A stretch of 64,000 nt of DNA. It comes from Polyangiales bacterium. Its GTDB lineage: Bacteria > Myxococcota_A > Polyangia > Polyangiales > Polyangiaceae. The notes beneath the pieces were generated by a model. That model was not told the DNA's origin, made no database searches, and saw nothing but the letters and a program-made list of their open reading frames with translations. The position numbers and the translations under genes were made by a program. The first letter of the stretch is position 1, and the number at the start of each line of letters is the position of its first letter. Where the stretch lies: contig JBBRLQ010000003.1 in the NCBI GenBank assembly GCA_038231275.1, forward strand, positions 108,340 through 172,339. Direction: 5' to 3'. Shown here piece by piece: positions 29,597 through 46,028 of this stretch.

Positions 29597-30862
29597 GTGG
29601 TACCGTCACGGTCAGGTGGGATGGCGATGAGGTTTCTGTACGGCGATTCGAGCCCGTTTCCGCTGCAGTACAACTTCCTGCAGACCCTCGAGGTCTTCAT
29701 GGCGTCGGGGACTCGCATCGTCGAGCTCGACGCCCAATCGCGCCGCGCGCAGACGCAGATCGGCGAGAGCTCGAACATGCGCGTGCGGGGGGTCGAAGCG
29801 CTCGACAACTTCCACCAGGCCGTCATGCGCGCGCTCAGGGACACGTCATCCCGCGCGACCGACAGCCTCACCGTCGACTACGCCCAGCAGCTCTCCGAGT
29901 ACGCCAACCGAATCGTCGAGGGGGCGCGCGCGCAGGCCACGTCGGCCACCGAGCGCGAGCTCGCGCAGGCCAACGCCGAGACCGAGCGCCGCCGGGTGGA
30001 AATCCGCGGCGCGATCGAAGCGTTCTTCAAGGTCGCGAAGCTGCCGGTCCTCGGCGCCACGATCGCGATGCGCCTCCCGCTCGCCAAAGAGCCCACGCAC
30101 GAGATGAGCGCCGTCATCTCGTTCGCGGAGGGCATCGTCGTCGGCTACACGCTCGTCGGCGACGCGCTCCCCGAGTGGCGCCACCCGCGAAAAATCAGCG
30201 AGTTCGCGCAAGGCATCAACCTCATGGTGGGCGCCAAGAAGAGCTGGTTCAAGAAGAGCGTCCAGCCGGAGCTGGTCGCCCTCGACGACCACATCTTGAG
30301 CGGCTTCGAGCTCTCGGACGACGCGGCGTTCCTCCGTCTCCGCAAGCGCCCCGAGCTGCCCGACGCGTACCTCTTCACGGTCCGCCGCGTCGACACGAAC
30401 CTCCTCGCGGAGGTCCAGTACGTCGACGATCCGGAGGCCCAGGGCCAGATGCCGACCGCCGTCGACGCCGGTGACCGCGTGCACCTCGAGCGCCTCTGGC
30501 AAATCCTGAGGAAGAGCGTCAACCCCGCCCTCGAGCACAAGACGCGCGTGGTCTCGATCCACCTCGACGGCGAAGAGATCTTCGCGAGCGACAAGGTCCT
30601 CGCCCTCGTCACGCGCCTCATCAAGATGCTCGCGCCGACGGTCGCCGAGATCGCGCGCCGCAGCCCGAACCAGCAAGAGCTGTCGCTCAAGATCGAGCAC
30701 GACGGCGGCCGTCGCGAAGAGATCTACGTGAAGAAGCAGGATCTCGTCGCCAAGCTCATCCCCCTCGCGCCGCCGGAGATCCAGGTCTTCGCCCCGCTCG
30801 CGCTGGGCCAGGCGGAGCCGTCGGTGATCACCACGATCCCGACGATCTCCACGGAAGACTGA
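29597..30862 (+). CDS. Hypothetical cytoplasmic protein immediately upstream of the MVP homologue
   Basis: 421-aa ORF with good coding look and no recognisable domains. Alternative starts at 29621 and 29627. Confidence 0.55.
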   Translation: MVPSRSGGMAMRFLYGDSSPFPLQYNFLQTLEVFMASGTRIVELDAQSRRAQTQIGESSNMRVRGVEALDNFHQAVMRALRDTSSRATDSLTVDYAQQLSEYANRIVEGARAQATSATERELAQANAETERRRVEIRGAIEAFFKVAKLPVLGATIAMRLPLAKEPTHEMSAVISFAEGIVVGYTLVGDALPEWRHPRKISEFAQGINLMVGAKKSWFKKSVQPELVALDDHILSGFELSDDAAFLRLRKRPELPDAYLFTVRRVDTNLLAEVQYVDDPEAQGQMPTAVDAGDRVHLERLWQILRKSVNPALEHKTRVVSIHLDGEEIFASDKVLALVTRLIKMLAPTVAEIARRSPNQQELSLKIEHDGGRREEIYVKKQDLVAKLIPLAPPEIQVFAPLALGQAEPSVITTIPTISTED

Positions 30863-30938: not shown

Positions 30939-30960
30939 TTGGCGCGGCACGGCGCGTGCT
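30939..30960 (+). promoter_or_regulatory. Candidate sigma54 (-24/-12) promoter upstream of MVP homologue
   Basis: cGGCACGgcgcGTGCt resembles TGGCACG-N4-TTGCW, with the GG and GC elements correctly spaced. It lies about 30 bp upstream of the MVP ATG. A GGAAGGAG ribosome-binding site follows at 30972-30979. Confidence 0.25.
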
Positions 30961-30989
30961 CCTCGGGACGGGGAAGGAGCACTCATCGC

Positions 30990-33011
30990 ATGACCGATCG
31001 CGACGTCCGCGAACGCGACATCCTCGTCGCCTCCAACGAGTACGCTTACGTGCAGGATCTCACCAAGGGCGACATCGTCCTCTACGTCGGGCCGACCAAG
31101 ATCAGCCTGAGCAACACCGAGCGCCTCGTGGACTTTCGGAGCGATCGCTTCGTGCCCGTGCGCAGCGACGACGGCGGGCTCGGCGTGAACCCGTTCGTCG
31201 CCGCGTCGTCGTCGCAGTACATCATCGTCGAGAACCCGACCAGGGACCCGACGCAGCGGCCGATCAAGGGGAGCAACGCGTCGATCGAGCTGCTCTCGGG
31301 GCGCAAGATCGTGGTCCCGGGTCCGGCGACGTTCCCGCTGTGGCCCGGCCAGCGCGCGAAGGTCGTCGACGGCCATGAGCTCCGCGAGCGCGAATACCTC
31401 GTCGTGCGCGTGTACGAGCAAGCGCCCGGCGACGAGCGGCCGATCGGCACCGAGATCATCGTGCGCGGCTCCGACACGAGCTTCTACATCCCGCGGACCG
31501 GCCTCGAGGTCGTCGCCACCGCGCAGGGCTACGTCCGCCTCGCGTGGCACCTCACGAAGAACACAGGGCTCCACGTGCGCGTGGTGAAACCGCACGTCGC
31601 TGCCGAGGGCGATCAGCTCCCTGCCGGCACCTACGCGGCGGGGACCGAGGTCTTCATCCACGATCGCGAGGGCTTCTTCTTCCCAACCGAGAGCCTCGAA
31701 GTGAAGGACATCGTCTTCGCCATCCCGCTCGCAGAAAAAGAGGGCATCTACGTCCGCGACATCGAAACCGGGCGCATCACGACGATCGCCGGCCCGTGCA
31801 GCTACCTCCCCGATCCCACGCGCGCGCTCGTCATCGAAAGGCGCCTCGCGCCGGAGCTCTTGGCGCTGTATGGGATCCATCCGGACGCGCGCGAGCGTGC
31901 GCTGTCGATCTACATTCCTCCCAGCTACGCGGTCCTCGTCATCGCGAAGAACAAGCGCGAGGTCGTGAAGGGTCCCGTCACGCGCATCCTCGCGTTCGAC
32001 GAGGAACTCGAGATCTTGCGCCTCTCGACGGGGCGTCCGAAATCCGACGAGGCGCTCCTCCCGACGTGCTTCCTCCAGATCGAGGGCAACAAGGTCAGCG
32101 ACGTCGTGCGCGTGAAGACCGCCGATCACGTCGAGCTGGAGATCGCGCTCTCGTACCGCGTGTCCTTCGTCACCCAAGGCGCCGAGGCGACGGACGCGGC
32201 GCGGTGGTTCCACGTGAAGAACTACGTGGGCCTCCTCTGCGATCACCTCGGCTCGATCCTCCGCGCCGCCGCCCGTGCCGCACGCATCGACGCGTTCCAT
32301 TCGTCGAGCACCGAAATCCTGCGAAGCGCAATTTTGGGCGAAAAACACGGGGAATCGCCGCGCGAGGGGCGCACCTTCGAAGAGAACGGGATGTGGGTCT
32401 ACGACGTCGAGGTCCTCGACGTGCGCATCCTCGATCAGGACGTGAAGAAGCTCCTCGAGGGCGCGCAGCGCGCCGGCATCGTCAGCGAGGTGAATCGCCG
32501 GCAAGAAGAGCTGCGCCTCTCGAGCGAAAAATTGAAGGAGGAGGTCGATCGCCAAATCTTCGCCTCGCAGATCGACACGATGCGGATGCAAGCCGAGCTC
32601 GAGGGCGCGCGGCGGCAGGTCGTCCTCGCGCAGGCGAGCTCGGCGATCGAGTCGCACAAAGTCGAGCGCGTCGGAAAAGCGACGAACGACGCCGAGGCCT
32701 TCACCATCTCGACCCGCGCGCGCATCGCGGCGGCGGAGCAAGACGCGGCGATCGAGGCGCTGCGCTTGTCGGGTCAGGTGGGCGCCTTCAAAGAACAGAT
32801 GGCCGCGATCCATCCCGAGCTCGTCGCGACGCTCAAGACCCTCGGCCATCAACAGCTCGCCGCGGAGCTGTCTCGAAATGTATCGCCCCTCGCGATCCTC
32901 GGCGGCGAGAGCGTGACCGACGTGGTCGAGCGCCTCCTCGGCTCTCTCCCGATCGGCTCCTCGGCGGCCCACGACGTGAAAAAGGTCCTCGCGATCCCAA
33001 AGACAAAATGA
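30990..33011 (+). CDS. Major vault protein (MVP) homologue, bacterial
   Basis: Colinear similarity to eukaryotic MVP from memory: [25 protein letters not shown] vs [35 protein letters not shown] vs [28 protein letters not shown] vs TADHARLQLQLAYNWHFEV. Shoulder/SPFH-like region and C-terminal coiled-coil cap helix are present. No signal peptide. Confidence 0.8.
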   Translation: [673 protein letters not shown]

Positions 33012-33075
33012 CCAAAGCCGACCTGGTACCCAGGACCTTCAGGTTAAATGACCAAAGCCGACCTGGTTACCCAGG
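33006..33075. repeat. Two copies of a 29-30 bp direct repeat (aaatgaccaaagccgacctggt[t]acccagg), the first containing the MVP stop codon
   Basis: Seen directly. Each copy contains a small palindrome cctgg-N3/4-ccagg. Confidence 0.6.
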
Positions 33076-33089
33076 CCGGCTTGGAGAAG

Positions 33090-35490
33090 TCACGTTGTCT
33101 CGTGGTGGGCGCAGAGGTTTATGCGCCGCTTGTGCCCGCCTCCAGGCTTTCGCCCTGAGGCTGTTCGGGAAATCTCTCGCGCGCCTTTCGCGTCGAGGGA
33201 CCACGGACCCTGCGGTCAAGCATTACGGCCTGCCGCCATCTATCGTTCGGTGAGGGAGCCTGCTCGGCCCACGGCCATTCGCGTGGCGTGGAATCGCGAG
33301 AGGTGCGTGTTGCTGTTCGCTTCACGCGCTTCGGTCAATCTCGCCCCTGGCGCATCCCTTTGCGTTCGTCTGCAGGCGCTCCGTCGAGCTCACCTGCACG
33401 TCTCGCCGCTTTCGCTGCGAGCCGCGGATGCTGATCCCTCGCGCTTGGTGTCGCCCACCACGCTGGAGGAACCTGAACCAGAAGGTACCGACCTCTGACG
33501 TCCATTGTCGTTTCTCGGGCACGGATCACCGGCTCCAGCCGACTCACCGCTGCCCCAACCGCACGCTGCACTACCTCGTTTTACGGAGACGATGCGTCAC
33601 GAACGACCGGAGGATTCACCCGAAAAACCAGCACCGCCTCGCGCCCCGCCCGTAAAGGCAAAAGCGTCTGAACGATGCAAGACGTCTGAAACAGTCACCA
33701 TGAAGTCCTACGAACCTTTGGCATTCGCAGGGCCCAATCATGCGCCTCATCTGGGAGGATTTGCGCGCACGACCAGCGCACCCGTTCGCCTCTGCTTCCT
33801 CACCGTCCGCGTCAGTCGCGGGGTCTCCGCACTCGGACCGGTGAACTTGCTCGGGCTAGGTCCCGCACCATCGAGCCGCCTTGCAGCAAACCCGGGGAAC
33901 GAGATCATAGATACGTCTGAGCTGTTTCTGCTTCCCTACACTCCGTCAACGAGCACCCGTACCTGGCTCTTTCCGGCTCATCGACACCGACTCTTCATCG
34001 GGCGTGTTCTTCAGTGGGATGTCGCCCACCGAAAACCGGAGATCCGCGCGTTTCACGACGCGCGTTGATCGCTTCGGTGAATCGCCTTCGCACTAGGGGG
34101 CTTGTTGGGCCGACCACGCACGCGACGACTTACCTCTGACGCCCCTGTCGCGATTCTCTCTTCGATACCAGGTCGTGCATTTTCGCGGTGCACGATTGCC
34201 GATTCGGAGAGACTCGCCGAGACCGCTTCTACCCCGCCGCCGTGACGCGACGAAGCTTTTCCCGGTCCAGAGCGCCTTCGTTCGACGGGAGATGCGCTGC
34301 TCTTCTTCCGCTCTCTCGAGCGGCGATTGCGCACCCTGTGCCCCGTGGATTTGCCCTGCGAGAGCTCCTCCTCGGGTCCCGAGCTGTCCTTTTGGGACAA
34401 CCCGGGCCGGCCTTGCGTGGTGTTGCGCACCCCGCCCGCCGGGAATCGGTCTTCGTGTCACCTACGGCTCCCTCCACCACGAATGACGTTCGCAGTGAAG
34501 AGCCTCGTTCGATTAGCGCGGGCCGCCTGGAACAGCGGACTCGACTAGGAACGATTCGTTACATCCGTAGGCTAGGCCCCCGTCCACCGCGTCCCCCGGT
34601 CCCTCTTTCGAGCGACTACGTAGTGGGGGAAGGGCGTCTCTGAGCCAGTACCTGACCGCCTGTCGACTTCTGCAAATGAGACATACAGCGTACGGGCACA
34701 TCCACGAGATCGCTTCCGCGCCCGCCTCGAGACTCCGTTCTTCTTGCGAAGCGTAGAGCCCCCATGCGTTTGCCGATCACGAGCACAGGGCCGGTTTTTG
34801 AGGCCGAGCCTGCACGCCGTGGGCAGCGCGCCGTGAAAAGTACGAACGAAGCGGATTCGCTTCGCCCACCCCGCCTTCTTATGCGCCCCGCTGCACGTTG
34901 CCGTGCAACTAAGACGTTTCGACGACGGGGCCGAGGTACAGCCACGGACCGACTGTCCTGAAGTGAAGGGCTCGCAGCCTTTTGGGCATTTTGCGAGCTC
35001 CCCTCCTTCGAAGGCAGCCGAGCATCCCTCTGTCGTCAGCTTGCTGCCGCGAAAGCCTGGAGTGCTTTCGCCGCGCCTCGCGTGGTCCATCGCGCCAAGT
35101 TTCCCTGGCGGAGAGGGGCCGCGGTTGGCCTCACATGCTGACCGAGATCTTCATTCCACCGCCCTCCCGCGAAGGCGGACGGTTTGCGCGAAGACCAGGG
35201 TGCTTTCCACCGATTGTCCCGAGCGCGTGCGGGGGTCGCCCCCTTTGCGCGCTCGCTCGGTCTCTCCGTCACGCCGCCCCTGAGGGGCATTGCGATCGTG
35301 AGACCAGCGCCTTTTTTTACCGCGGTACCAGCCGCCTCGCCCTGACGAGCCAAGCGTTTTGAGTTGCTGGTGCGGTTCAGTGGGTCGGGTTGGAAGGGTG
35401 TTGATCTTCCAGGGTCCGGCCTGCTGCAGCGCCCTCTCGGTTTCTACGATGCGTACTCGCTCGCGGATTGATGTGCCGCGAACTTCTGAA
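33090..35490 (-). ncRNA. Degenerate LSU (23S) rRNA-like region (relic pseudo-rRNA or highly diverged structural RNA)
   Basis: No ORF longer than 190 codons on either strand for about 3.1 kb. The reverse complement is colinear with bacterial 23S rRNA as recalled, for example tttttaccgcggtaccag vs TTTTCCTCGGGGTACTTAG near the 5' end, cggggtctccgcactc vs CGGGGTCTTTCCGTC, tttcacgacgcgcgttgatcgc vs TTCACGACGGACGTTAGCAC, and acggatcaccgg vs ACCGGATCAC. Similarity is only about 60%, and the universal motifs (sarcin-ricin loop, GCTACCTTAGGACCGTTATAG) are not intact. Confidence 0.45.
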
Positions 35491-35499
35491 GCAATAGAT

Positions 35500-35760
35500 A
35501 TCGAATCCCCCTAGACCGCACAACACAAAAAGAACGACTCAATCACTTTTTTTATCCACAGGTTGCCCACCGGAATTGTCCACAGGGTTTCCCCCGAAAA
35601 CGCGAAATAGCGCCTGTTTTCTCGCAAATTCGAGCGAGTTTTGAGAGACAGAAATGGCCTACAATTGTTTGATTGATGCAATTGATTGGCATGCCAATTC
35701 AAAACAATCGTGTTTCATTTGCTGTTTGAATGAGTGATTGAGAAATAGTGGTGCACGGTG
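35500..35760. promoter_or_regulatory. AT-rich island with two DnaA-box-like 9-mers and palindromic caattg/ttggcatgccaa elements
   Basis: TTATCCACA at 35552-35560 and TTGTCCACA at 35576-35584, same orientation, both followed by GG. GC content here is about 40% against about 68% in flanking DNA. The island lies at the 5' side of the 23S-like region relative to the minus strand. Confidence 0.4.
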
Positions 35761-36195
35761 CGGCGAAATCGCGCGCGGCCGCGAAAAGACGCTGGGGATC
35801 GCGTCTGGGTCAGGGGTGCGACACAACCGGAAAAGTGCACATGGAGAGGTCCCCTGCGCGCACCGTGGGAGCGAGGGCGTGTATCGGGGAAGTTGAGCGC
35901 GCGTGACGCCGTCGTGAACGCACGAGGTGGGAAGGTTCGGGGCGCGCCCCCGTAGGACCCAAGAGATGCCGCGCGTGCGCCACGACTGTGTCGTCTTCTC
36001 GGTTCCGGCGCTTCCCCCGGGCTACGTCGCACCTTCACCCACCCTCCTCTCGCCCTACACGCGCGAGCCGGAGCGGGTGCAGCGCCCGCTCCCCGAAGCG
36101 TGGCAGTCGAAGCGTCCGTGCCTCGCGTTTCCGGCCGTTTCCGCGGAGATCGTGGCCGCGCTCAACCGTTCCTGCTGAGGCCTGGCGCTCGGTTC

Positions 36196-37365
36196 CTACG
36201 CGGACGCCGAAGGCTCGTGATGCCTGGCAGCCTCGAGGCCGTGGGCCGCGATGTTCGTTCGCCAGCGGAAGCGCTCGATCGTTTTGCCGGCGACGGCGTC
36301 GGCGATCCACTTGCCGACGAGCGGCGCGAATTTGAAGGCGTGGCCCGAGCCGCCGGCGGCGACGACGAGGTTCTTTCGATCGGGATGGCGATCGATGAAG
36401 AAGTGCTCGTCCTTCGTGTCGCAGTAGATGCAGACGCGCGTGGCCGCGATCGGCGCGTGCTCGAGCGCGGGGAACGTCTCGCGGAGGAATTGGCGGAGCG
36501 CGGGCTCGTCGTCGTCACGCAGCGCGCGCGGGCCGTCGGGATCGCAGGCGAAGCCAGGGCCGTGGTTGGCGATCTTGACGAGGCCGTTCGGGGTGACGGG
36601 AAAGCCGTAGTAGCCGGTGCGCGCGATGTCGGCGCCGAACGTGGGGAAGCGGGCGGCCTCGAAAATGCGCGGATCGCTCGGGCGCAGGTGGAAGACCGAC
36701 TGCGCCGTGGCGAACAAGTCATTCTGAAGCTCGGGGAGGAGCTTCGACGTCCATGCGCCCGCGCAGAGGACGACGGTGTCGGCGGTCAGCTTGGTACCTC
36801 CTTGATCGATCACGCCGTCGTCCACGATACGCGCGGCGCGAAAGCCCTCGACGATGCGCACGCCGACGCGGAGAGCTTCCGCCGCAAGGCGGGCCACGAC
36901 GCGACCGCTCTCGGCGAATCCTCCCACGCGATTGAAGTAGCCGTCGGTGTACGCGCCCGTGCTCCATGCGGGGAAACGGGCGGCGAGCGACTGCGCGTCG
37001 AGGCGCTCCAGCTGATGGCCGCGCTCGACGAGGAGCTCGAACGAGTCGTGCTCGAAGCCTCCCTTCTTCATCTCGCCGCGCGCGACGTAGAGGACGCCGG
37101 TCTCGTGGAAGAGCGATTGGCCGTTCTCGGCGACCCAGCCGCGGTCCCACGCGCGCCAGCCTTCCATCGCGTCTTCCATCATCGCCGAGTAGGTGACGTC
37201 CGCGCCGTAATCCATGCGCACCGCTTTGCTGAGGTCGGTGGACTCGGCGTCGGGGTACGGAATCGGACCGGGATCGGTGAGCGTCACGTCGTCGCCTCTT
37301 CGCCGGAGCTCGAGCGCCGCGGTGACGCCGAAAATACCCCCTCCGCACACGAGGACCGACGCCAT
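36196..37365 (-). CDS. FAD-dependent oxidoreductase (DAO/sarcosine oxidase-like family)
   Basis: N-terminal GxGxxG Rossmann motif (VCGGGIFGVTAALEL); DAO-family length and C-terminal motifs. Confidence 0.85.
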   Translation of the reverse strand: MASVLVCGGGIFGVTAALELRRRGDDVTLTDPGPIPYPDAESTDLSKAVRMDYGADVTYSAMMEDAMEGWRAWDRGWVAENGQSLFHETGVLYVARGEMKKGGFEHDSFELLVERGHQLERLDAQSLAARFPAWSTGAYTDGYFNRVGGFAESGRVVARLAAEALRVGVRIVEGFRAARIVDDGVIDQGGTKLTADTVVLCAGAWTSKLLPELQNDLFATAQSVFHLRPSDPRIFEAARFPTFGADIARTGYYGFPVTPNGLVKIANHGPGFACDPDGPRALRDDDEPALRQFLRETFPALEHAPIAATRVCIYCDTKDEHFFIDRHPDRKNLVVAAGGSGHAFKFAPLVGKWIADAVAGKTIERFRWRTNIAAHGLEAARHHEPSASA

Positions 37366-37433: not shown

Positions 37434-40400
37434 GTGGACGGACGTCTCGTCATCGCTGAGCGCTTCGAGATCGAGCACCTCGTCGGTACGGGCGGGATGG
37501 GCGAGGTCTTTCGTGCGAAGGACCGCCTGACGGGCGGCCCGGTCGCGATCAAGCTCTTGCACCCCGGGATGACGCGGGATCAGGAGCGCTTCCGGCGCGA
37601 AGCGCAGCTGTTGGCCGAGCTCTCGCACCCACGCGTCGTTCGCTACGTCGCGCACGGCATCGCGAGCGGCGGGCGACCCTACATCGCGATGGAGTGGCTG
37701 GAGGGGCTCGATCTCTCCGATCGTCTCTCGCACGAGGGATTCACGCTGGACGAGGCGGTCACCCTTGCGCGGCGCGCGGCCGAGGCGCTCGGCGCATTGC
37801 ACGAACGCGGCATCGTCCACCGCGACGTGAAGCCCTCGAACCTCTTCCTCGTTGGCTCCGATCTCCACAGCGTGAAGCTGCTCGATCTCGGCATCGCGCG
37901 GCTCTCGACGCCGACGCGGCCGGCGACGCGCAGCGGGGTCATGGTGGGCACGCCGGGGTACATGGCGCCCGAGCAAGCGCGCGGCGCCAAAGAGATCGAC
38001 GCGCGGGCCGACGTGTTCTCGCTCGGCTGCGTCCTCTTCGAGTGCATCGCGGGGCGACCGGCGTTCGTGGGGGACAACGCGGCAGCGCTCCTCGCCAAGA
38101 TCTTGCTCGACGAGTCCCCGCGCATCCTCGACTACCGGAAGGACGCGCCGCCGGAGCTCGACGATCTCGTGTCGCGTATGCTGGCGAAGCATGCGGGCGC
38201 GCGTCCGGCCGACGGGCACGCGGTCGCGCGGGAGCTCGCGCAGATCGCGCGCGGCGGGCTCGATTCGCAGCGGCGGAGCAGCATTCGTGCGCTGCGCGCG
38301 ATCACCGGCGGGGAGCGGCGCCTCGTGAGCATCGTGATGGCGTCCTCCATCCTCACGCCGGTCGAGACGCCGGTCGACCTTGCGGCGGAGACGCTGACTG
38401 GCGACACGTCGGTCGCGTCGCTCGACATGCGCAGCGTCGTCGCACCGTTCGGCGCCAAGTTCGAGAGCCTCGCCGATGGGTCGGTCGTGGTGGCCGTGAC
38501 GGGGAAGGGCAGCGCGACGGATCAAGCGGCCCACGCGGCGCGCTGCGCGTTGGCGATTCGCGCGCACATGCACGACGCGCACATGGTCTTGGCGACGGGC
38601 CTCGCGACGGTGACCGATCGCACGCTCTATGGCGACGTGCTCGATCGCGCCGCGGCGCTGCTCGTCGAGGCGCGACGGGCCTTCGCGCAGGTCGGGCCCG
38701 ACGGGACCGTGAAGAGCGCGCCGCTCCCGCTGCCGGTGCGCCTCGACGAGACGACGGCGGGCTTGCTCGATCTCCGTTTCGACGTCGAGGGGGACGACCT
38801 AGGGCTGACGCTGCGAGGCCCGCGCGCCGAGGAAAGCCCGACGCGGACGCTCCTCGGCATGGCGACGCCGTTCGTCGGGCGCGACCGCGAGCTCGCGACC
38901 CTGCACGGGCTCGTGGAGGAGTGCATCTCGGAGCCGGTCGCCCGCGTCGTCCTCGTGACGGCGCCGCCAGGAGGCGGGAAATCACGCCTCCTCCACGAGC
39001 TCCTCCTCCAGGCGCGGAACCTCCACGACAATGTCGAGGTGTGGCTCGCGCGCGGCGATCCGATGAGCGAGGGCTCGCCGTTCCACATGCTCGCGCAGGG
39101 GATCCGGCGCGCGTGCGGCTCGGTCGAGGGAGAGCCGCTCGCGGTTCGTCGGCAGAAGCTGCGTGCGCGTGTCGCCCGGCACATCGAAGGAGACGAGCTC
39201 ACGCGCGTGACGGAGTTCGTCGGCGAGCTCGTCGGCACGCCGTTCCAGGGAGACACGAGCGTGCAGCTCCGCGCCGCGCGCCAGGACGCGATGCTGATGG
39301 GTGACCAGATGCGTCGCGCGTGGGAGGACTGGATCGCCGCGGAGTGCCTCGCGCAGCCGGTCGTGATCGTCCTCGAAGATTTGCAGTGGGGCGATCTGCC
39401 GAGCGTGAAGCTCATCGACGCCGCGCTCCGCAACCTCTCCGAGCTGCCGCTCCTCGTCGTCGCGGTGGCGCGTCCCGAGGTGCACGAGGTGTTCCCCAAC
39501 CTCTGGTCGGAGCGCGGGCTTCAGGAGGTGCGCCTCGGGCCGCTCGTGAAGAGCGCCAGCGACCGTCTCGTTCGTCAGGTCCTTCCCGACGCCACCCAAG
39601 AGGAAGTGACTCGGCTCGTCGAGCGCTCCGCCGGCAACGCGTTTTATCTCGAAGAGCTGATTCGCGCGGTCGCCGAGGGTCGCGGCGGCGAGCTACCAGA
39701 GACGGTGCTCGCGATGGTGGAGGCACGGCTCGAGCGGCTCGAGCCCGAGGGGCGGCGGCTGCTGCGCGCCGGGAGCGTCTTCGGGCAGGTGTTCTGGCGA
39801 GGCGGCGTCGCGGCGTTGCTCGGTCAGTCGCTCCGCGCGAGCGAGGTCGACGAGTGGCTCGGCGAGCTCGTCGCGCGCGAGATCCTCCTCCAGCGACGCC
39901 GCTCGAAGTTTCCAACGGACGCCGAGTACGCGTTCCGGCACGCGCTGGTGCGCGAGGCGGCGTACGCGATGCTGACGAGCGAGGATCGCGCGCTCGGGCA
40001 CAAGCTCGCCGGCGAGTGGCTCGAGGAGGCGGGCGAGACCGACGCGGTGGTGCTCGCCGAGCACTTCGACCGCGGGGGCGTGCCCGCGCATGCGGTGAGG
40101 TGGTACCGCCGCGCCGCCGAGCACGCGCTCGAGGGAAATGATTTCGAGGCGGCGACGGCGCGCGCCGAAGGGGCCATCGCGGCGGGCGCGGCGGGCCAGG
40201 AGCGCGGCGCCTTGCGGCTGCTCCAGGCGAGCGCGGCGGACTGGAACGGCGACACCGCCTCGGCGATTCGCTTCTCCGAGGAGGCGCTGCATGATCTCAC
40301 TCCGGGCACCGACGACTGGTACCTCGCGGCAGGCGAGGTCGCGCTCGCGAGCCGAAAAATGGGCGATTTCGAGCGCGTCAACGCGGTGGGCCGCGCGGTG

Positions 40401-41363
40401 CGTGTGTTCGACGAACTACCGCAGTCGACGCCCGCGCGCCTCGTCGGCACGGCGCGGGTGACGGGAGCCCTCTACCTCGCCGGAGGGTTTGCGCCCGGCG
40501 ACGCACTCCTCGCGGTGCTCGAGAAGAACGGCGCCGCCCTCGCCGCGAACGAGCCCGCCGTCGCCGCATGGATCCATTTCGCCCGCGGCGCGCGCGCGCT
40601 CTGGAGCGCGGAGGTCGAGGAAGATCTGATCTCGACGCTCGCCGCGATCGAGGAGTTCACGCGCGCCGGCGATCTCCGCAACGTGTGCATGAACCAGGTC
40701 ACCGCCGGCTTCATCCTGTCGTCGATCGGCCAGCTCGAAGAGTCCGAGCGCATCCTCCGCGAGGCGCTCGACGCCGCCGATCGCATGGGCCTCCGCGCGA
40801 CCAGCCTCCTCGGCCGGCAAAATCTGGGCACCACGCTGGCGCGCCTCGGCCGGCTCGACGAGGCGCTCCTCATCGAGCAAGAGGCGCTCGAGGGATACCG
40901 AACGCAAGGGGATCACGTCTGGGAGGCGATCTCGCGCGTGTACCTGGGGCTGCTCTTGCGCCTCCAGGGAAAGCTGCCCGAGGCCGAGCGCGAGATCCGT
41001 CACGCGCTCCAGGCCGTCCGCTTCGCGCCGCCCGTCCACGCGGCCGGTCTCGGCGCGCACGCGCTCATCCTGCTCGATTTGCCCGATCCGGCGGCGGCGC
41101 GCGCGGCCGCGGAGCAGGCGATGCGCATCTTCCGCGAGGTGGGCGGCGTGCTCGAGGGCGAGTCGATGATCCGCCTGGTCTACGCGGAGTCTCTCTGGGC
41201 GACCGGAGACCAAGACGCTGCGCGCGAGGCGATCGCGGAGGCGCGCGATCGGCTGGTCGCGCGCGCCGACGCGATCAAGAAGAAGGCGTGGCGAAAATCC
41301 TTCCTCGAGCGCGTGCGCGAGAACATCCGGACCCTGGCACGCGCCGGGGAGTGGCTCCGGTAG
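37434..41363 (+). CDS. Ser/Thr protein kinase fused to STAND-type AAA+ ATPase and TPR repeats (1309 aa)
   Basis: N-terminal kinase domain (GTGGMGEVF, VAIK, HRDVKPSN, DLG, APE). Central P-loop NTPase (VLVTAPPGGGKSRL). C-terminal TPR-like helical repeats. Confidence 0.85.
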   Translation: MDGRLVIAERFEIEHLVGTGGMGEVFRAKDRLTGGPVAIKLLHPGMTRDQERFRREAQLLAELSHPRVVRYVAHGIASGGRPYIAMEWLEGLDLSDRLSHEGFTLDEAVTLARRAAEALGALHERGIVHRDVKPSNLFLVGSDLHSVKLLDLGIARLSTPTRPATRSGVMVGTPGYMAPEQARGAKEIDARADVFSLGCVLFECIAGRPAFVGDNAAALLAKILLDESPRILDYRKDAPPELDDLVSRMLAKHAGARPADGHAVARELAQIARGGLDSQRRSSIRALRAITGGERRLVSIVMASSILTPVETPVDLAAETLTGDTSVASLDMRSVVAPFGAKFESLADGSVVVAVTGKGSATDQAAHAARCALAIRAHMHDAHMVLATGLATVTDRTLYGDVLDRAAALLVEARRAFAQVGPDGTVKSAPLPLPVRLDETTAGLLDLRFDVEGDDLGLTLRGPRAEESPTRTLLGMATPFVGRDRELATLHGLVEECISEPVARVVLVTAPPGGGKSRLLHELLLQARNLHDNVEVWLARGDPMSEGSPFHMLAQGIRRACGSVEGEPLAVRRQKLRARVARHIEGDELTRVTEFVGELVGTPFQGDTSVQLRAARQDAMLMGDQMRRAWEDWIAAECLAQPVVIVLEDLQWGDLPSVKLIDAALRNLSELPLLVVAVARPEVHEVFPNLWSERGLQEVRLGPLVKSASDRLVRQVLPDATQEEVTRLVERSAGNAFYLEELIRAVAEGRGGELPETVLAMVEARLERLEPEGRRLLRAGSVFGQVFWRGGVAALLGQSLRASEVDEWLGELVAREILLQRRRSKFPTDAEYAFRHALVREAAYAMLTSEDRALGHKLAGEWLEEAGETDAVVLAEHFDRGGVPAHAVRWYRRAAEHALEGNDFEAATARAEGAIAAGAAGQERGALRLLQASAADWNGDTASAIRFSEEALHDLTPGTDDWYLAAGEVALASRKMGDFERVNAVGRAVRVFDELPQSTPARLVGTARVTGALYLAGGFAPGDALLAVLEKNGAALAANEPAVAAWIHFARGARALWSAEVEEDLISTLAAIEEFTRAGDLRNVCMNQVTAGFILSSIGQLEESERILREALDAADRMGLRATSLLGRQNLGTTLARLGRLDEALLIEQEALEGYRTQGDHVWEAISRVYLGLLLRLQGKLPEAEREIRHALQAVRFAPPVHAAGLGAHALILLDLPDPAAARAAAEQAMRIFREVGGVLEGESMIRLVYAESLWATGDQDAAREAIAEARDRLVARADAIKKKAWRKSFLERVRENIRTLARAGEWLR

Positions 41364-41369
41364 CGCGCG

Positions 41370-44300
41370 ATGAAGAAAGCGGAGCCGGCGATCGTGCCGC
41401 AGGGCGGAGGCCCTCCGGCCGAGACCGAGGCGGGGGGTGACGACGACGAAACGGACGCGCCGGCCGGCCTCCCGATCGTCGAGCCAACGCACTACGCGAT
41501 CATGGGGGAGATCGCGCGTGGAGGTCAGGGCCGCGTCCTCTTGGCGCGCGATCGGCGGCTCGGTCGCGAGGTCGCCCTCAAAGAGATGCTCAAGGTCTCG
41601 TCCTCGTCGGTCGGACGTTTCGTCCGCGAGGCCATGATCACCGCGCGCCTGCAGCACCCTGGCATCGTGCCCGTCCACGAGGCGGGCCGATGGCCCACCG
41701 GCGAACCGTTCTACGCCATGAAGCGCGTCTCGGGGCGTCCGCTCGACGAGCTCGTCGCCGCGGCGAAGAGCCACGAAGAGCGCCTGGCGATGCTGCCGCA
41801 CGCGATCGCGGCCGCCGACGCGATCGCGTATGCGCACGCGTCGGCCATCCTCCATCGCGACTTGAAGCCGGCGAACATCCTGGTCGGAGAGTTCGGCGAG
41901 ACGGTGGTCGTGGACTGGGGCGTGGCCAAGCGGCTCGACGAGGACGACACGCCGCTCAGCGATCTGGATCCGCTGGCCATGCAAGGCCACACGCGCGTCG
42001 GCGCGGTCGTGGGGACGCCGGCGTACATGGCGCCCGAGCAGGCCGCGGGAGGCCCCGTCGATCGTCGCGCGGACGTGTACGCGCTCGGCGCGACGCTCTA
42101 CCACGTGCTCAGTGGAGTGCCGCCCTACGCGAGCGTGAGCTCCAGCGATCCGGCGCCCCACCTCGCGGTCCTCGACGGCCCGCCGGTTCCGCTCGCGGAG
42201 CGCGCCCCCGGAGTGCCTCACGAGCTCTGCACAATCGTCGACAAGGCGATGGCGCGCCGTGCCGAGGATCGGTACCCGAGCGCGAAGGAGCTGGCCGACG
42301 ATCTCAAGCGCTTCGCCGCCGGTCAGTTGGTCGCCGCGCATCGCTATTCGACGCGCGCGCTCGTCGGGCGTTGGCTCCGCCGTCATCGCGCCGCGGCGCT
42401 GCTCACGAGCCTCTTCGTCGTCGCGCTCGCCGCGGTCGGCACACTGAGCGTCCGGCGCGTCGTAGAGGAGCGCAACGCCGCGCGCGCGCATCAACGCGCG
42501 GCGGAAGAGGCGAACCAGAGCCTCGTCGAAGCCAACGACGCGCTCAGGCTCCAGACCGCGCGTGCCGAGCTCGATCGCGATCCGACGGCGGCCGTCGCGT
42601 GGCTGAAGACGTACCCGGCCACCGCGCCCGAGCAGCGCGCGGCCGGTGCCATCGCGCATGACGCATGGACACGGGGGGTCGCGCGCCACGTCTTCTCCCG
42701 CGACGAGCCCCTGCTCGCGGTCGCCATGTCGCCCGACGAGCGGCACCTCGCAGTCACGGGCCGCGCCAGCCTCACGCTCTACGATCTCGCCACCGGCGTC
42801 GGGCGCACGTTCGCGGCCACGGAGGGAGTGGGCGTCGATGCCGTCTTCTCGCCCGACGGAAAGACCCTGTGGACGAGCGCCGGTCACGTGCTCCTCCTCT
42901 GGAACGTCGGGACCGGAGCCTCGCGGCGCATCGACGTGGGCCGCGAGGCAGGAGTCCTGGAGCTCACGGGCGACGGTCGCTTCCTGCTTGCCCGCGACGT
43001 CCAGCATCGAACGGTGACGCTCCGCGACGTCGTGGGCGACAGGGAGGTGCCTCTGCCCGCCGAGGCCGTTACCGGCGCGTTCCTCCCGGACGGAAAGACC
43101 GTGGCGATCGCGACGGGCACAGCGCTCTTCTTCCAGCCGCTCGGCGGCGGCCCACCGGTTCGCGCCGCGACGCTCGCGTCCGCCTCCTCGCCCAAGGACG
43201 TGCGTGTCTCGGGCGATGGTCGGCTCCTCGCCGTGTCCTCCGACGTCGGGATCGACGTCTACGACGCACGCGGCGCGCTCGTCCGCCACCTTCGCGCGCC
43301 AAACTTCCAGCCCTCGATGCGCGGGCTCCTCTTGGACAAAAGCGACCGCGTCATGTCGTGCAGCCGGCTCGGGCAGGTGTGGGTCTGGAGCGTCGCGTCG
43401 GGGGAGTCGCACGTCCTCGGTGAGGCGAGCTCGCCGTGCTCGGAGATGCGCCTCGCCCCCGACGGCGTGAGCCTCGTGATGCCCGGCGTCGCGAACCAAG
43501 TTCAGGTCTGGGATCTCGTGGGCGGTGGGCTCCGGCGCCTCTTCGGTCACTCCGCGACCGTCAATCGGATCGCGATGTCGTCGAGCGGCGGATGGGTCGC
43601 GTCGGTGTCCGGTGACCAAACGGCGCGCGTCTGGCGGCTCGGCGAAGGGGACTTGCGCGTCCTTCACGGCGTCACGTCGCACTCGCGCCTGGCCGCCGAT
43701 CGCTACGTGCTCACGGCGGAAAAATCATCGCACGCGCTCGAGCGGATCGATCTCCGCACCGGCGACACCAAGACGGTGAGCGGTCCGCGTCCGCTCTCGT
43801 GGGGAACGGCGACGTGGCTCAGCCCGGACGGCGAGGTCGCCGTGTACGCCGACGACACCGAGCAAATCTGGCGGTGGGACGCTGCGAGCAACACCGCTCG
43901 ACGCTGGTTTCGGTACGTGCGCCCGGGCGCACGGCACGTCGCGCACGATCTCTCCCCGGACGGCCGCTTCTTCGTGGGCGCCTCCACCGATTTCTCCGTC
44001 GTGCTCGTCGACCTCCAGACGATGGCGCAGCGCGAGCTCGGGCGGCACGACGCCATTCCCGAGGCCGTCAAATTCTCGCCCGATGGAAAGCTGGTGGCGT
44101 CCGCGGCGCGCGATCGGCTCGTTCGGGTCTGGGACCTCGAGAAGGGAACGTCGCGTGCGTTCGCGGGCCATACGGCGTTCTTGTGGGACGTCTCGTTCTC
44201 GTCGGACCGCCGGCACGTCGCGTCGGCAGGAGCGGACTCGACGATTCGCGTGTGGGACCTCGCGAGTGGAGAATCGCAGGTCCTTCGAGGCCACACCTCC

Positions 44301-44621
44301 ACGGTCGTGTCGATCGACTACCACCCCGACGGCAAGCGGCTGGTCAGCGTTTCCGACGACGGTACCGCCCGCATTTGGGACGTCGCCACCGGCGACAACG
44401 AGATCGTGCGCCGTGAGCATGCCGTCCTCTATTACGCGGCGTACTCGGCAGACGGCCGCTACGTGTCGAGCACCGCCACCGACTCCGCCACGGCGGTGTG
44501 GGATCCCGCGGTGACGCCGGTGTTTGAGCGCGATCCGGCCGCCCTTCGACGATGGTTCGATCGCATCTCGTCGGCCACGGTCGGCGCCGATGGCCGCGTG
44601 AGCACGCCGTCTCTTCCGTGA
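41370..44621 (+). CDS. Ser/Thr protein kinase with single TM helix and C-terminal WD40 beta-propeller (1083 aa)
   Basis: Kinase motifs (HRDLKPANIL, DWG, APE). TM segment (LLTSLFVVALAAVGTL). Multiple WD repeats ending in VWD/IWD (GHTSTVVSIDYHPDGKRLVSVSDDGTARIWD). Confidence 0.85.
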   Translation: MKKAEPAIVPQGGGPPAETEAGGDDDETDAPAGLPIVEPTHYAIMGEIARGGQGRVLLARDRRLGREVALKEMLKVSSSSVGRFVREAMITARLQHPGIVPVHEAGRWPTGEPFYAMKRVSGRPLDELVAAAKSHEERLAMLPHAIAAADAIAYAHASAILHRDLKPANILVGEFGETVVVDWGVAKRLDEDDTPLSDLDPLAMQGHTRVGAVVGTPAYMAPEQAAGGPVDRRADVYALGATLYHVLSGVPPYASVSSSDPAPHLAVLDGPPVPLAERAPGVPHELCTIVDKAMARRAEDRYPSAKELADDLKRFAAGQLVAAHRYSTRALVGRWLRRHRAAALLTSLFVVALAAVGTLSVRRVVEERNAARAHQRAAEEANQSLVEANDALRLQTARAELDRDPTAAVAWLKTYPATAPEQRAAGAIAHDAWTRGVARHVFSRDEPLLAVAMSPDERHLAVTGRASLTLYDLATGVGRTFAATEGVGVDAVFSPDGKTLWTSAGHVLLLWNVGTGASRRIDVGREAGVLELTGDGRFLLARDVQHRTVTLRDVVGDREVPLPAEAVTGAFLPDGKTVAIATGTALFFQPLGGGPPVRAATLASASSPKDVRVSGDGRLLAVSSDVGIDVYDARGALVRHLRAPNFQPSMRGLLLDKSDRVMSCSRLGQVWVWSVASGESHVLGEASSPCSEMRLAPDGVSLVMPGVANQVQVWDLVGGGLRRLFGHSATVNRIAMSSSGGWVASVSGDQTARVWRLGEGDLRVLHGVTSHSRLAADRYVLTAEKSSHALERIDLRTGDTKTVSGPRPLSWGTATWLSPDGEVAVYADDTEQIWRWDAASNTARRWFRYVRPGARHVAHDLSPDGRFFVGASTDFSVVLVDLQTMAQRELGRHDAIPEAVKFSPDGKLVASAARDRLVRVWDLEKGTSRAFAGHTAFLWDVSFSSDRRHVASAGADSTIRVWDLASGESQVLRGHTSTVVSIDYHPDGKRLVSVSDDGTARIWDVATGDNEIVRREHAVLYYAAYSADGRYVSSTATDSATAVWDPAVTPVFERDPAALRRWFDRISSATVGADGRVSTPSLP

Positions 44622-44678
44622 CGCGGCTGGCGAGCACGCTCGCATCGATCGCAGGCGGATGTTCTTCGACGCTACGCA

Positions 44679-46028
<1,350 letters not shown>

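Follow-up and report, generated by a model that had tools for sequence, protein, structure and literature searches.

What does a stretch of AT-rich DNA with a perfect DnaA box do in a GC-rich genome? This question is raised by a window of 64,000 nucleotides (the whole stretch of DNA analyzed here, numbered from its first base) from a Polyangiales bacterium (NCBI GenBank assembly GCA_038231275.1, contig JBBRLQ010000003.1, positions 108,340 to 172,339 of the forward strand), in which an initial annotation, made from the sequence alone, had marked an island of low guanine-plus-cytosine (GC) content and had read it as a DnaA-regulated promoter or an origin-like element. Our analyses suggest that the island serves a stand-alone, ~2.4 kb structured non-coding RNA gene on the minus strand as its promoter and upstream regulatory region, a reading to which we assign a probability of about 0.8. 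We assign the island to a promoter region because the 5' end of the RNA lies ~20 nt away, because four species share a common footprint there, and because the island and the RNA gene travel together. The two elements are as follows.

33091-35480, minus strand: structured non-coding RNA gene, ~2.4 kb, belonging to no Rfam family (nhmmer boundaries 35478-33091)
35498-35760, minus strand: AT-rich island, the proposed upstream control region (~-20 to -280) of the RNA gene and the deepest GC trough of the window

The compositional anomaly itself is as pronounced as had been claimed, namely a fall to about 40% GC over roughly 250 bp. GC content is 0.424 over 35500-35749, and among all 250-bp intervals of the window the one starting at 35498 has the lowest value (0.42); the mean is 0.69 (sd 0.039), and the next-deepest trough reaches 0.568. 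Within the island lies also the most AT-rich 100 bp of the window, with a GC content of 0.34 at 35648.

A large structured RNA is encoded beside the island

Evaluating the DNA to the left of the island, we found no coding signature in any frame between 33011 and ~35900 as judged by codon-position GC, with normal genes up to 33011 and again from 36196. The gene ending at 33011 encodes a bacterial major vault protein (MVP) homolog. GC content in the RNA region is flat across the three codon positions in every frame, and substitution rates in the three phases (0.159, 0.162, and 0.157) show no power at period 3. Comparison with a locus whose MVP is 74% identical to that of the window (L005) revealed that the 2.2 kb without genes that follows MVP there aligns to 33046-35385 with 70% identity, blocks of 24-39 nt without a single change alternating with indel-rich stretches. 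Scanning metagenome contigs of the Joint Genome Institute (JGI) for an exact 21-nt pattern from one conserved block returned 68 contigs, 66 of which proved to be homologs of the RNA at 69-90% identity; the other two (L099 and L120) carry the search pattern and are not RNA homologs. Most of the homologous contigs are 2.2-2.4 kb long and made up of the RNA element only.

The secondary structure of this element was evaluated with RNAalifold on 35 full-length sequences (70-99.6% identity), folded in both senses.

Window minus sense: energy -1454, 721 pairs, G-U to A-C cells 3435:495
Window plus sense: energy -1186, 656 pairs, G-U to A-C cells 1483:1134

On the minus sense only, G-U cells exceed A-C cells by 7 to 1, and 94.5% of cells in the minus-sense structure are paired, as compared to 38-43% in controls with the partners slid out of register by 1-3 columns. 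Double-sided changes were seen in 306 pairs (1609 cells) against 110-145 pairs (~300 cells) in these controls, and they are evenly distributed over the full length of the RNA. The 420-nt 5' domain, which is the part nearest the island, holds 93 pairs with 97.7% of cells paired and 21 pairs that covary, values that none of 500 shuffles reached by any measure. Covariation thus supports ~720 base pairs, and on the minus strand only. Invariant columns number 733 of 2290 across the 35 sequences despite pairwise identities down to 70%, GNRA accounts for 10 of the 23 tetraloops in the window sequence, and the RNA sense strand is rich in G and A (G 0.349, C 0.291, A 0.206, U 0.154).

What kind of RNA this is was then sought among known families. 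The "minus-strand 23S-like RNA" of the initial annotation survives in part, in that a large minus-strand RNA gene does adjoin the island, whereas its likeness to ribosomal RNA (rRNA) found no support from models of rRNA or of any other family. Rfam gave no match at gathering score across the whole window, and a relaxed search of 32800-36400 at E up to 10 returned chance-level matches only, to unrelated eukaryotic and small RNA models and to no large-subunit (LSU) model, by which 23S/LSU rRNA was rejected. OLE, GOLLD, ROOL, HEARO, raiA, group II introns, RNase P, tmRNA, and the other Rfam 15 families likewise had no model match, and ARAGORN listed no tRNA or tmRNA in the window. Literature searches on large myxobacterial or soil non-coding RNAs found no description of such an RNA, which is not proof that none exists.

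The RNA has a sharp 5' end next to the island and a terminator at its far side

Of particular weight for the island is where the RNA begins. Among 43 near-full-length contigs, which come from independent samples, 21 start exactly at CGGCACATC (position 35478 of the window) and five more start within 2 nt of it, while none extends into the island. The 3' ends of contigs are ragged (33069-33101), many of them falling at the motif GACUUCU just before the terminator. Over 40 contigs, 2.0-2.4 kb in length, contain nothing but this element and end at coinciding positions, and since coincident ends in independent assemblies are expected of transcripts and not of DNA contigs, these contigs appear to be RNA-derived.

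At the other end of the gene we located the following feature.

33046-33080, minus strand: intrinsic terminator, a hairpin at 33057-33080 followed by UUUGGUCAUUU, shared back-to-back with the MVP-like gene

The hairpin shows compensatory changes and a U-tract in the window, in L131, and in L133, and the same kind of hairpin and U-tract occurs in L005. The U-tract lies on the minus strand, and the position A61/C76 forms a G-U pair on the minus strand only.

Three contigs have unusual ends. In L138, an LSU rRNA-like fragment (1-624; judged by eye from GGTTAATATTCC and similar motifs) is fused at the mature 5' base of the RNA, which is most simply explained as a chimera of two abundant RNAs and would then lend independent support to the RNA 5' end. 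In L071 (1-190) and L109 (1-443), the first ~48 nt of the RNA are replaced by unrelated sequence, in L109 by a tandem duplication of ~220 nt, and the 3' ends of both (2680-2809 in L109) have no terminator and run into an open reading frame (ORF) starting MNYSDRFLRETASYSVLD; these two represent either a variant locus or an assembly chimera.

Two further observations concern the annotation and the surroundings of the RNA gene. Many public assemblies carry spurious "hypothetical proteins" of 140-295 aa called inside the RNA (for instance, ORFs such as 34572-35090, minus strand, in the window), and the protein collection holds 24 such RNA-internal proteins, among them calls of 194 aa in L131, L133, and L138; such calls probably correspond to no real protein. 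The window also carries an exact 22-nt direct repeat, AAATGACCAAAGCCGACCTGGT, with copies at 33006 and 33046 (33006-33067), 40 bp apart. The first copy overlaps the stop codon of MVP, and the second makes up the A-tract and left arm of the terminator hairpin that the two genes share; the repeat has the appearance of a local duplication of part of the terminator. We considered whether L001 and L002 end after MVP because a multi-copy repeat starts there, and rejected this, as both simply end inside the terminator hairpin; nor did the window contain a second copy of the RNA region.

A probable promoter footprint is conserved across four species

To read the island itself, we aligned the DNA upstream of the RNA from four species (the window, L131/L132, L133/L134, and L137), the upstream contigs having been reached either via the DAO neighbor (an FAD oxidoreductase gene; L131/L132) or via a spurious ORF called inside the RNA (L133/L134 and L137). 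A strict scan for the Escherichia coli promoter consensus gave 0 matches and did not list the -10 described here; the promoter was located by species comparison instead. Reading from the boxes discussed below toward the RNA, the candidate core elements are these.

35526-35551, minus strand: A-tract/T-tract block AAAAAGTGATTGAGTCGTTCTTTTTG between the proximal box and the -35, with AAAAGTGATTGAG.CGT and TTTTT.TG invariant in the four species
35518-35523, minus strand: -35 element TTGTGC, with the surrounding TGTTGTG invariant
35495-35500, minus strand: -10 element TATCTA (alignment column TATCTA, TATCTA, TATTCA, TATCAA; consensus TATyna, TAT invariant)
35478-35488, minus strand: RNA start, with transcription predicted to begin at ~35486-35488 and the observed 5' end at 35478-35480

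Between the distal box and the RNA start, the four species align without insertion or deletion. The -35 hexamer is TTGTGC in all but L131, which has TTGTGG, the 17-bp spacer is fixed in length and free in sequence, and downstream of the -10 an invariant CAGAAGTTCGCGGCACATCAATCC runs into the RNA, where CAGAAGTTCGCGGCAC at the RNA start is again invariant. Because conserved hexamers flank a spacer of fixed length and free sequence, this pattern points to a sigma-70-type promoter; 17 bp also lies within the 16-18 bp usual for such spacers. The A/T-rich block directly upstream resembles an UP element and may act as one. These observations favor one of the alternatives listed in the initial annotation, that of a promoter driving the minus-strand RNA, given that the island abuts the RNA 5' end and that the -35, the 17-bp spacer, the -10, and the boxes are all kept in four species.

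Judged from the position of the -10, transcription would start at ~35486-35488. The 5' end of the abundant RNA is at 35478-35480, so that 7-9 nt would be removed as a leader. The leader sequence AGAAGUU can pair with the GACUUCU just before the terminator, a motif present in all three of the species with known 3' ends. Such pairing may resemble an rRNA-type processing stem, although both strands are invariant and covariation therefore neither supports nor refutes it.

Farther upstream, the island holds additional conserved sites.

35702-35715, minus strand: palindrome AAACA-N4-TGTTT at ~-220, kept in the four species as AAACA(cgat/tgat/tcat)TGTT and AAATAacatTGTTT
35667-35690, minus strand: CAATCA repeats, with TCAAT.GC..CAATCA kept in the four species

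The palindromes and repeats that had been reported in this part of the island are all present, namely caattg at 35662-35667 and 35679-35684, ttggcatgccaa at 35686-35697, and ttgattg "iterons" at 35669-35675 and 35682-35688, and they differ in what became of them in relatives: ttgattg, which is CAATCA on the other strand, is kept and ttggcatgccaa is not. The palindrome TTGGCATGCCAA, which overlaps the CAATCA repeats, is not conserved either. A sigma-54 reading of TTGGCATGCCAA was rejected, both because a -24/-12 promoter would need a different spacing and because relatives have not kept the palindrome.

Low GC content is itself a shared property of this region, the 280 nt 5' of the RNA having a GC content of 0.43-0.51 in the four species, as compared to 0.63-0.66 within the RNA; for the three species other than the window the values are 0.46-0.51, against 0.65 in the RNA. 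The AT-rich part is less extreme in L131 than in the window (GC 0.54 versus 0.34 per 100 bp).

DnaA-type boxes lie upstream of the proposed promoter in a fixed arrangement

The feature that had first suggested DnaA, a perfect and a near-perfect box, was confirmed as direct repeats 24 bp apart on the plus strand, TTATCCACAGG at 35552-35562 and TTGTCCACAGG at 35576-35586. Aligning the four species added a third, weaker copy between them.

35552-35560, plus strand: proximal DnaA-type box TTATCCACA (TGTGGATAA on the RNA-sense strand), centered at ~-69 from the predicted start
35563-35571, minus strand: degenerate third box GGTGGGCAA (RNA-sense), with 3 mismatches to TGTGGATAA, between the two good boxes
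35576-35584, plus strand: distal DnaA-type box TTGTCCACA, centered at ~-93 from the predicted start

Neither TTNTCCACA nor even TTNTNCACA occurs anywhere else on either strand of the 64 kb. The number of boxes taken alone is compatible with chance, at least 3 one-mismatch matches arising across the whole window in 17 of 100 shuffles; it is the adjacency of the pair, its common orientation, and its conservation in three other species that take it beyond chance. The proximal box is TTGTCCACA in L131 and TTATCCACA in both L133 and L137, while the distal box is TTCTCCACA in all three. In RNA sense, all four species read TGTGGA(C/G)AA (distal), a degenerate GGTGGGyAA, and TGTGGA(T/C)AA (proximal), with the third box separated by 4 nt from the distal box and by 2 nt from the proximal one and all three in the same orientation. 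The GTGGGyAA of the third box is invariant, and in L131 and L133 the box scan picks it up at 2 mismatches. Across 138 loci fetched, the two-box pattern was exclusive to DNA upstream of these RNA genes.

Which protein would read these sites? Matches were judged against the consensus of E. coli and of high-GC bacteria. The literature gave no usable myxobacterial consensus. The DnaA box of E. coli is TTATNCACA, while Streptomyces, Mycobacterium, and other high-GC bacteria use TT(G/C)TCCACA, so that position 3 is where the E. coli type (TTATCCACA) and the high-GC type (TT[G/C]TCCACA) differ. All eight orthologous 9-mers fit TTNTCCACA and vary at position 3 alone. In L137, the flanks of both boxes have diverged (CCTGTGG to CTTGTGG, and GGGGGAAACC to AGTGCACAAG) and both 9-mers are intact, which indicates that the conserved unit is the DnaA-box 9-mer and not the 11-mer originally described. 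With the 9-mers all fitting TTNTCCACA, their variation confined to position 3, and a weak box between them, DnaA is the leading candidate for the protein on the boxes, an assignment that we make tentatively and at somewhat less than even confidence. A DnaA-regulated promoter, as predicted from the conserved 9-mer TTNTCCACA, is a plausible reading of the island.

The same promoter could also be controlled by another regulator or a nucleoid protein that binds the TTNTCCACA repeats, with the likeness to DnaA boxes being coincidental, and we regard this as only slightly less likely than DnaA. It would accommodate the fact that the conserved stretch exceeds the 9-mers in three of the four species (AACCTGTGGAyAA), that the entire region from -30 to -110 is conserved, that further conserved upstream sites (AAACA-N4-TGTTT and the CAATCA repeats) have no factor assigned to them, and that no DnaA-related gene lies nearby. 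It sits less easily with L137, where the flanks diverge while both 9-mers persist, and with the restriction of variation within the 9-mer to position 3, just as between known types of DnaA box. The arrangement of three boxes in one orientation with gaps of 4 and 2 nt also resembles that of DnaA arrays at chromosomal origins (oriC), in which weak sites ~2 bp apart lie between strong anchor boxes in one orientation.

An origin, an island border, or a divergent promoter explain the island less well

Two DnaA boxes, one perfect and one near-perfect, next to the 100 bp of the window that are richest in AT, together with a shallow minimum of the cumulative GC skew near 35 kb, are what one might expect of a replication origin, whether secondary chromosomal, plasmid- or integrative-and-conjugative-element (ICE)-type, or oriC-like. 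An oriC usually holds at least 4-5 DnaA boxes in both orientations or in arrays; here two boxes with ≤1 mismatch are accompanied by a single degenerate one, the three sharing the same orientation, with no other TTNTNCACA in 64 kb. The genes examined on the two flanks include no dnaA, dnaN, rep, par, or integrase gene, in line with the initial annotation, which had itself pointed out that dnaA and dnaN do not flank the island. Genes on both sides are mostly on the plus strand without divergence of orientation, and the local skew minimum is explained by the RNA gene, which is rich in G and A on its sense strand. The distance from island to RNA is fixed in four species while the surrounding genes differ, and plasmid and phage collections had no match to the RNA and island. 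The AT-rich DNA beside the boxes (0.34 GC per 100 bp here, 0.54 in L131) holds conserved motifs that look like protein sites. With so few boxes, no replication genes on the flanks examined, and no switch of gene orientation, the origin-like, DNA-unwinding, and plasmid- or ICE-origin readings were abandoned as extremely improbable.

The neighborhoods of the RNA gene bear on a second alternative, that the island marks the border of a horizontally acquired segment or insertion and that its AT-rich DNA is foreign or junction sequence. Upstream of the RNA gene lie DAO in the window, DJ-1/PfpI and DAO in L131, and a cupin gene and a 74-aa ORF in L133; downstream lie MVP (the window and L005) or unrelated genes. 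A locus whose MVP is 69% identical (L003, 10001-14236) has a beta-lactamase and DAO directly after MVP and lacks both the RNA gene and the AT island, and L130, whose DAO is 86% identical, likewise has neither the RNA gene nor the island beside DAO. Given that the neighbors differ and that L003 is without the module, the RNA gene and its promoter behave as a unit that is gained, lost, or moved. The differing neighborhoods, the empty L003 locus, and the exact 22-nt direct repeat on the far side of the module (copies at 33006 and 33046, 40 bp apart) could all be taken as signs of a border. Yet the island is kept base-for-base with the RNA gene although the RNA differs by 14-30%, which is not expected of junction debris, and it moves together with the RNA gene into differing neighborhoods, contrary to the border reading of the initial annotation. 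No integrase, transposase, or tRNA gene is adjacent, and the 22-nt repeat is a partial duplication of a terminator arm and not a target-site duplication flanking the module. A border would be compatible with a mobile or rearranged RNA-promoter module but leaves the conserved internal architecture of the island unexplained, and we consider it very unlikely.

A third alternative concerns only the part of the island distal to the RNA, in that 35620-35760 might also, or instead, drive a rightward ORF (35927-36178, plus strand) or a small RNA. This ORF is coding-like in its third-position GC content (GC3 0.83), and a 44-nt block at 35865-35908 is shared with L131, where it stands upstream of a divergent DJ-1/PfpI gene. 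The 83-aa ORF is not a remnant of that gene, and the far-upstream motifs persist in L133 and L137 despite their other neighbors, which ties them to the RNA gene. We therefore see a divergent control region as improbable, if less so than a border or an origin, and return to the promoter of the RNA gene as the preferred account of the island.

A model for the island and its weak points

Taken together, these observations suggest the following course of events. RNA polymerase with the housekeeping sigma factor would use the conserved -35 TTGTGC (35523-35518) and -10 TATCTA (35500-35495), aided by the A/T-rich, UP-like tract at 35526-35551, and would begin transcription near 35487. The leader of 7-9 nt would then be cut off, giving the abundant RNA whose 5' end is observed at 35478-35480, and transcription would end at the hairpin and U-tract at 33080-33046, a terminator that sequence and compensatory changes both support. 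The two 9-mers and the weak middle box, at fixed spacing and ~-69 to -93, would form a regulator-binding array that sets promoter output. DnaA would be the most likely protein on this array and would tie synthesis of the RNA to the status of replication initiation. Additional conserved sites in the farther part of the island (35620-35760), the AAACA-N4-TGTTT palindrome and the CAATCA repeats, may contribute as well.

Several points weigh against this model. The -35 and -10 hexamers resemble the E. coli consensus only weakly, and the strict scan for that consensus found no promoter. Between the -10 and the observed 5' end there are 14-16 nt, more than the 5-9 nt expected of a primary start, and the model has to invoke processing or else accept that the -10 was mis-assigned. 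The transcription start is a predicted one, placed from the -10, and the upstream footprint is drawn from four species only. The choice of DnaA over another factor at the boxes follows from sequence resemblance, and because the whole stretch from -30 to -110 is conserved, the footprint isolates the 9-mers only partly, in L137. Lastly, that the JGI contigs are assembled transcripts is suggested by their coincident ends rather than by sample metadata.

A bolder version of the model would make the island the DnaA-responsive switch of a new class of giant RNA (~2.4 kb, ~720 pairs), the largest structured non-ribosomal RNA of bacteria, abundant in many environmental RNA samples, coupled to replication, and matured at its ends in an rRNA-like manner from a leader/trailer stem. 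As a whole we think this unlikely. The more modest statement is that the RNA gene appears to be an uncatalogued one of soil myxobacteria, its class new and its kind of promoter ordinary. The island alone would be conventional, a promoter with upstream factor sites, and the interest lies in the RNA that it drives, which, if it is as we infer, would be the largest known structured RNA of bacteria besides ribosomal RNA. A third of its positions are invariant across sequences that differ by up to 30%, and it appears to have been recovered as a discrete molecule from dozens of environmental samples. At about three times the size of OLE, ROOL, and GOLLD it would add substantially to the short list of such RNAs, and it could represent a new ribozyme or ribonucleoprotein machine. 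For such an RNA the island offers an experimental handle, with a defined promoter, a defined 5' end, and a testable hypothesis about the DnaA boxes at -69 and -93, which, if true, would link the RNA to the cell cycle or growth state. It also illustrates that a perfect DnaA box beside the most AT-rich DNA of a GC-rich genome need not mark an origin.

Genes and other features around the module

The genes bordering the RNA gene and the island in the window are listed here.

29597-30862, plus strand: gene without a Pfam match, 421 aa, preceding the MVP homolog
30939-33011, plus strand: bacterial major-vault-protein homolog (MVP_shoulder, E = 2e-32)
36196-37365, minus strand: FAD oxidoreductase (DAO), flanking the island

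Beyond DAO follows a signaling run at 37434-46028 (plus strand) that includes two Ser/Thr kinases, the first of 1309 aa with AAA_16 and TPR domains and the second of 1085 aa with WD40 propellers, as well as a sigma-54 activator of 468 aa with an FHA domain. This is typical regulatory content for myxobacteria, and the first of these kinases is also found beside DAO in L132.

The 44-nt block at 35865-35908 corresponds to 2541-2584 of L131 at 86% identity, within DNA beyond the island that has otherwise diverged. It lies ~70-110 nt upstream of the divergent DJ-1/PfpI gene in L131 and just before the small ORF 35927-36178 in the window, and it may be a second, rightward promoter or operator. The idea that this ORF is what remains of the DJ-1/PfpI gene of L131 was rejected, as the two show no similarity.

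On the other side of the RNA gene, the pair formed by the 421-aa protein and MVP has a counterpart in L001 and L002, where a 413-aa protein is paired with MVP. Over 500 homologs of MVP came up in our searches, the majority in Myxococcota and a number in Planctomycetota and Acidobacteriota, and bacterial MVP homologs have already been described (bioRxiv 10.1101/872010).

Comparison with known systems

In the window and in L005, the RNA gene and a bacterial MVP homolog are arranged tail-to-tail, which brings to mind the vault particle, whose RNA is ~100 nt as opposed to the ~2.4 kb seen here. A vault-like pairing of RNA and MVP was rejected, since the two are linked in only 2 of 5 neighborhoods (not in L131, L133, or L137) and 56 other MVP loci had no homolog of the RNA; the linkage is probably incidental.

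The RNA is like 23S rRNA in being of similar size, purine-rich on its sense strand, densely structured, and highly abundant, with ends that may be processed, but it has no LSU match and no 16S, 5S, or tRNA neighbor. The island in turn recalls the P1-type promoters of rRNA (rrn) operons, in that it would drive an abundant, structured, untranslated RNA from a GC trough in a GC-rich genome, with an A/T tract directly 5' of the -35, an array of candidate protein sites at ~-65 to -100, and a possible leader/trailer pairing (AGAAGUU/GACUUCU) by which both ends would be trimmed as in rRNA precursors. It differs from rrn P1 in that the RNA is not rRNA, that DnaA-type boxes take the place of Fis sites, that the -35 and -10 match the E. 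coli consensus weakly, and that the unit includes no tRNA or other RNA gene; the UP function and the processing are predicted features here.

The island resembles promoters regulated by DnaA, such as those of dnaA, nrdAB, and mioC in E. coli and of sda and dnaA in Bacillus subtilis, in that a perfect and a near-perfect DnaA 9-mer, both conserved across species, are found upstream of its proposed promoter. The target here is a giant non-coding RNA instead of a gene for replication or nucleotide metabolism, the boxes lie at ~-69 and -93, as for an activator, and do not overlap the core promoter, and the binding of DnaA is a prediction. The array is also reminiscent of oriC arrays, datA, and DARS, with boxes in the same orientation at about one helical turn, a weak box between two strong ones, and AT-rich DNA alongside. 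It departs from these in having three sites only, in having no dnaA or dnaN among the flanks examined, in showing no switch of skew or orientation within the window, and in holding a position that is fixed relative to the RNA gene in four gene neighborhoods.

The closest parallels for the RNA itself are the large bacterial non-coding RNAs to which no function has been assigned, OLE (~600 nt), ROOL (~580 nt), and GOLLD (~800 nt) (PMC12286853, PMC9723947). Like them, it is encoded by a stand-alone gene, has very high covariation support, invariant blocks, and many GNRA tetraloops, and has no known function. Unlike them, it matches none of their Rfam models, is at ~2.4 kb three to four times longer, and comes from Myxococcota-type genomes and many environmental contigs of the JGI.

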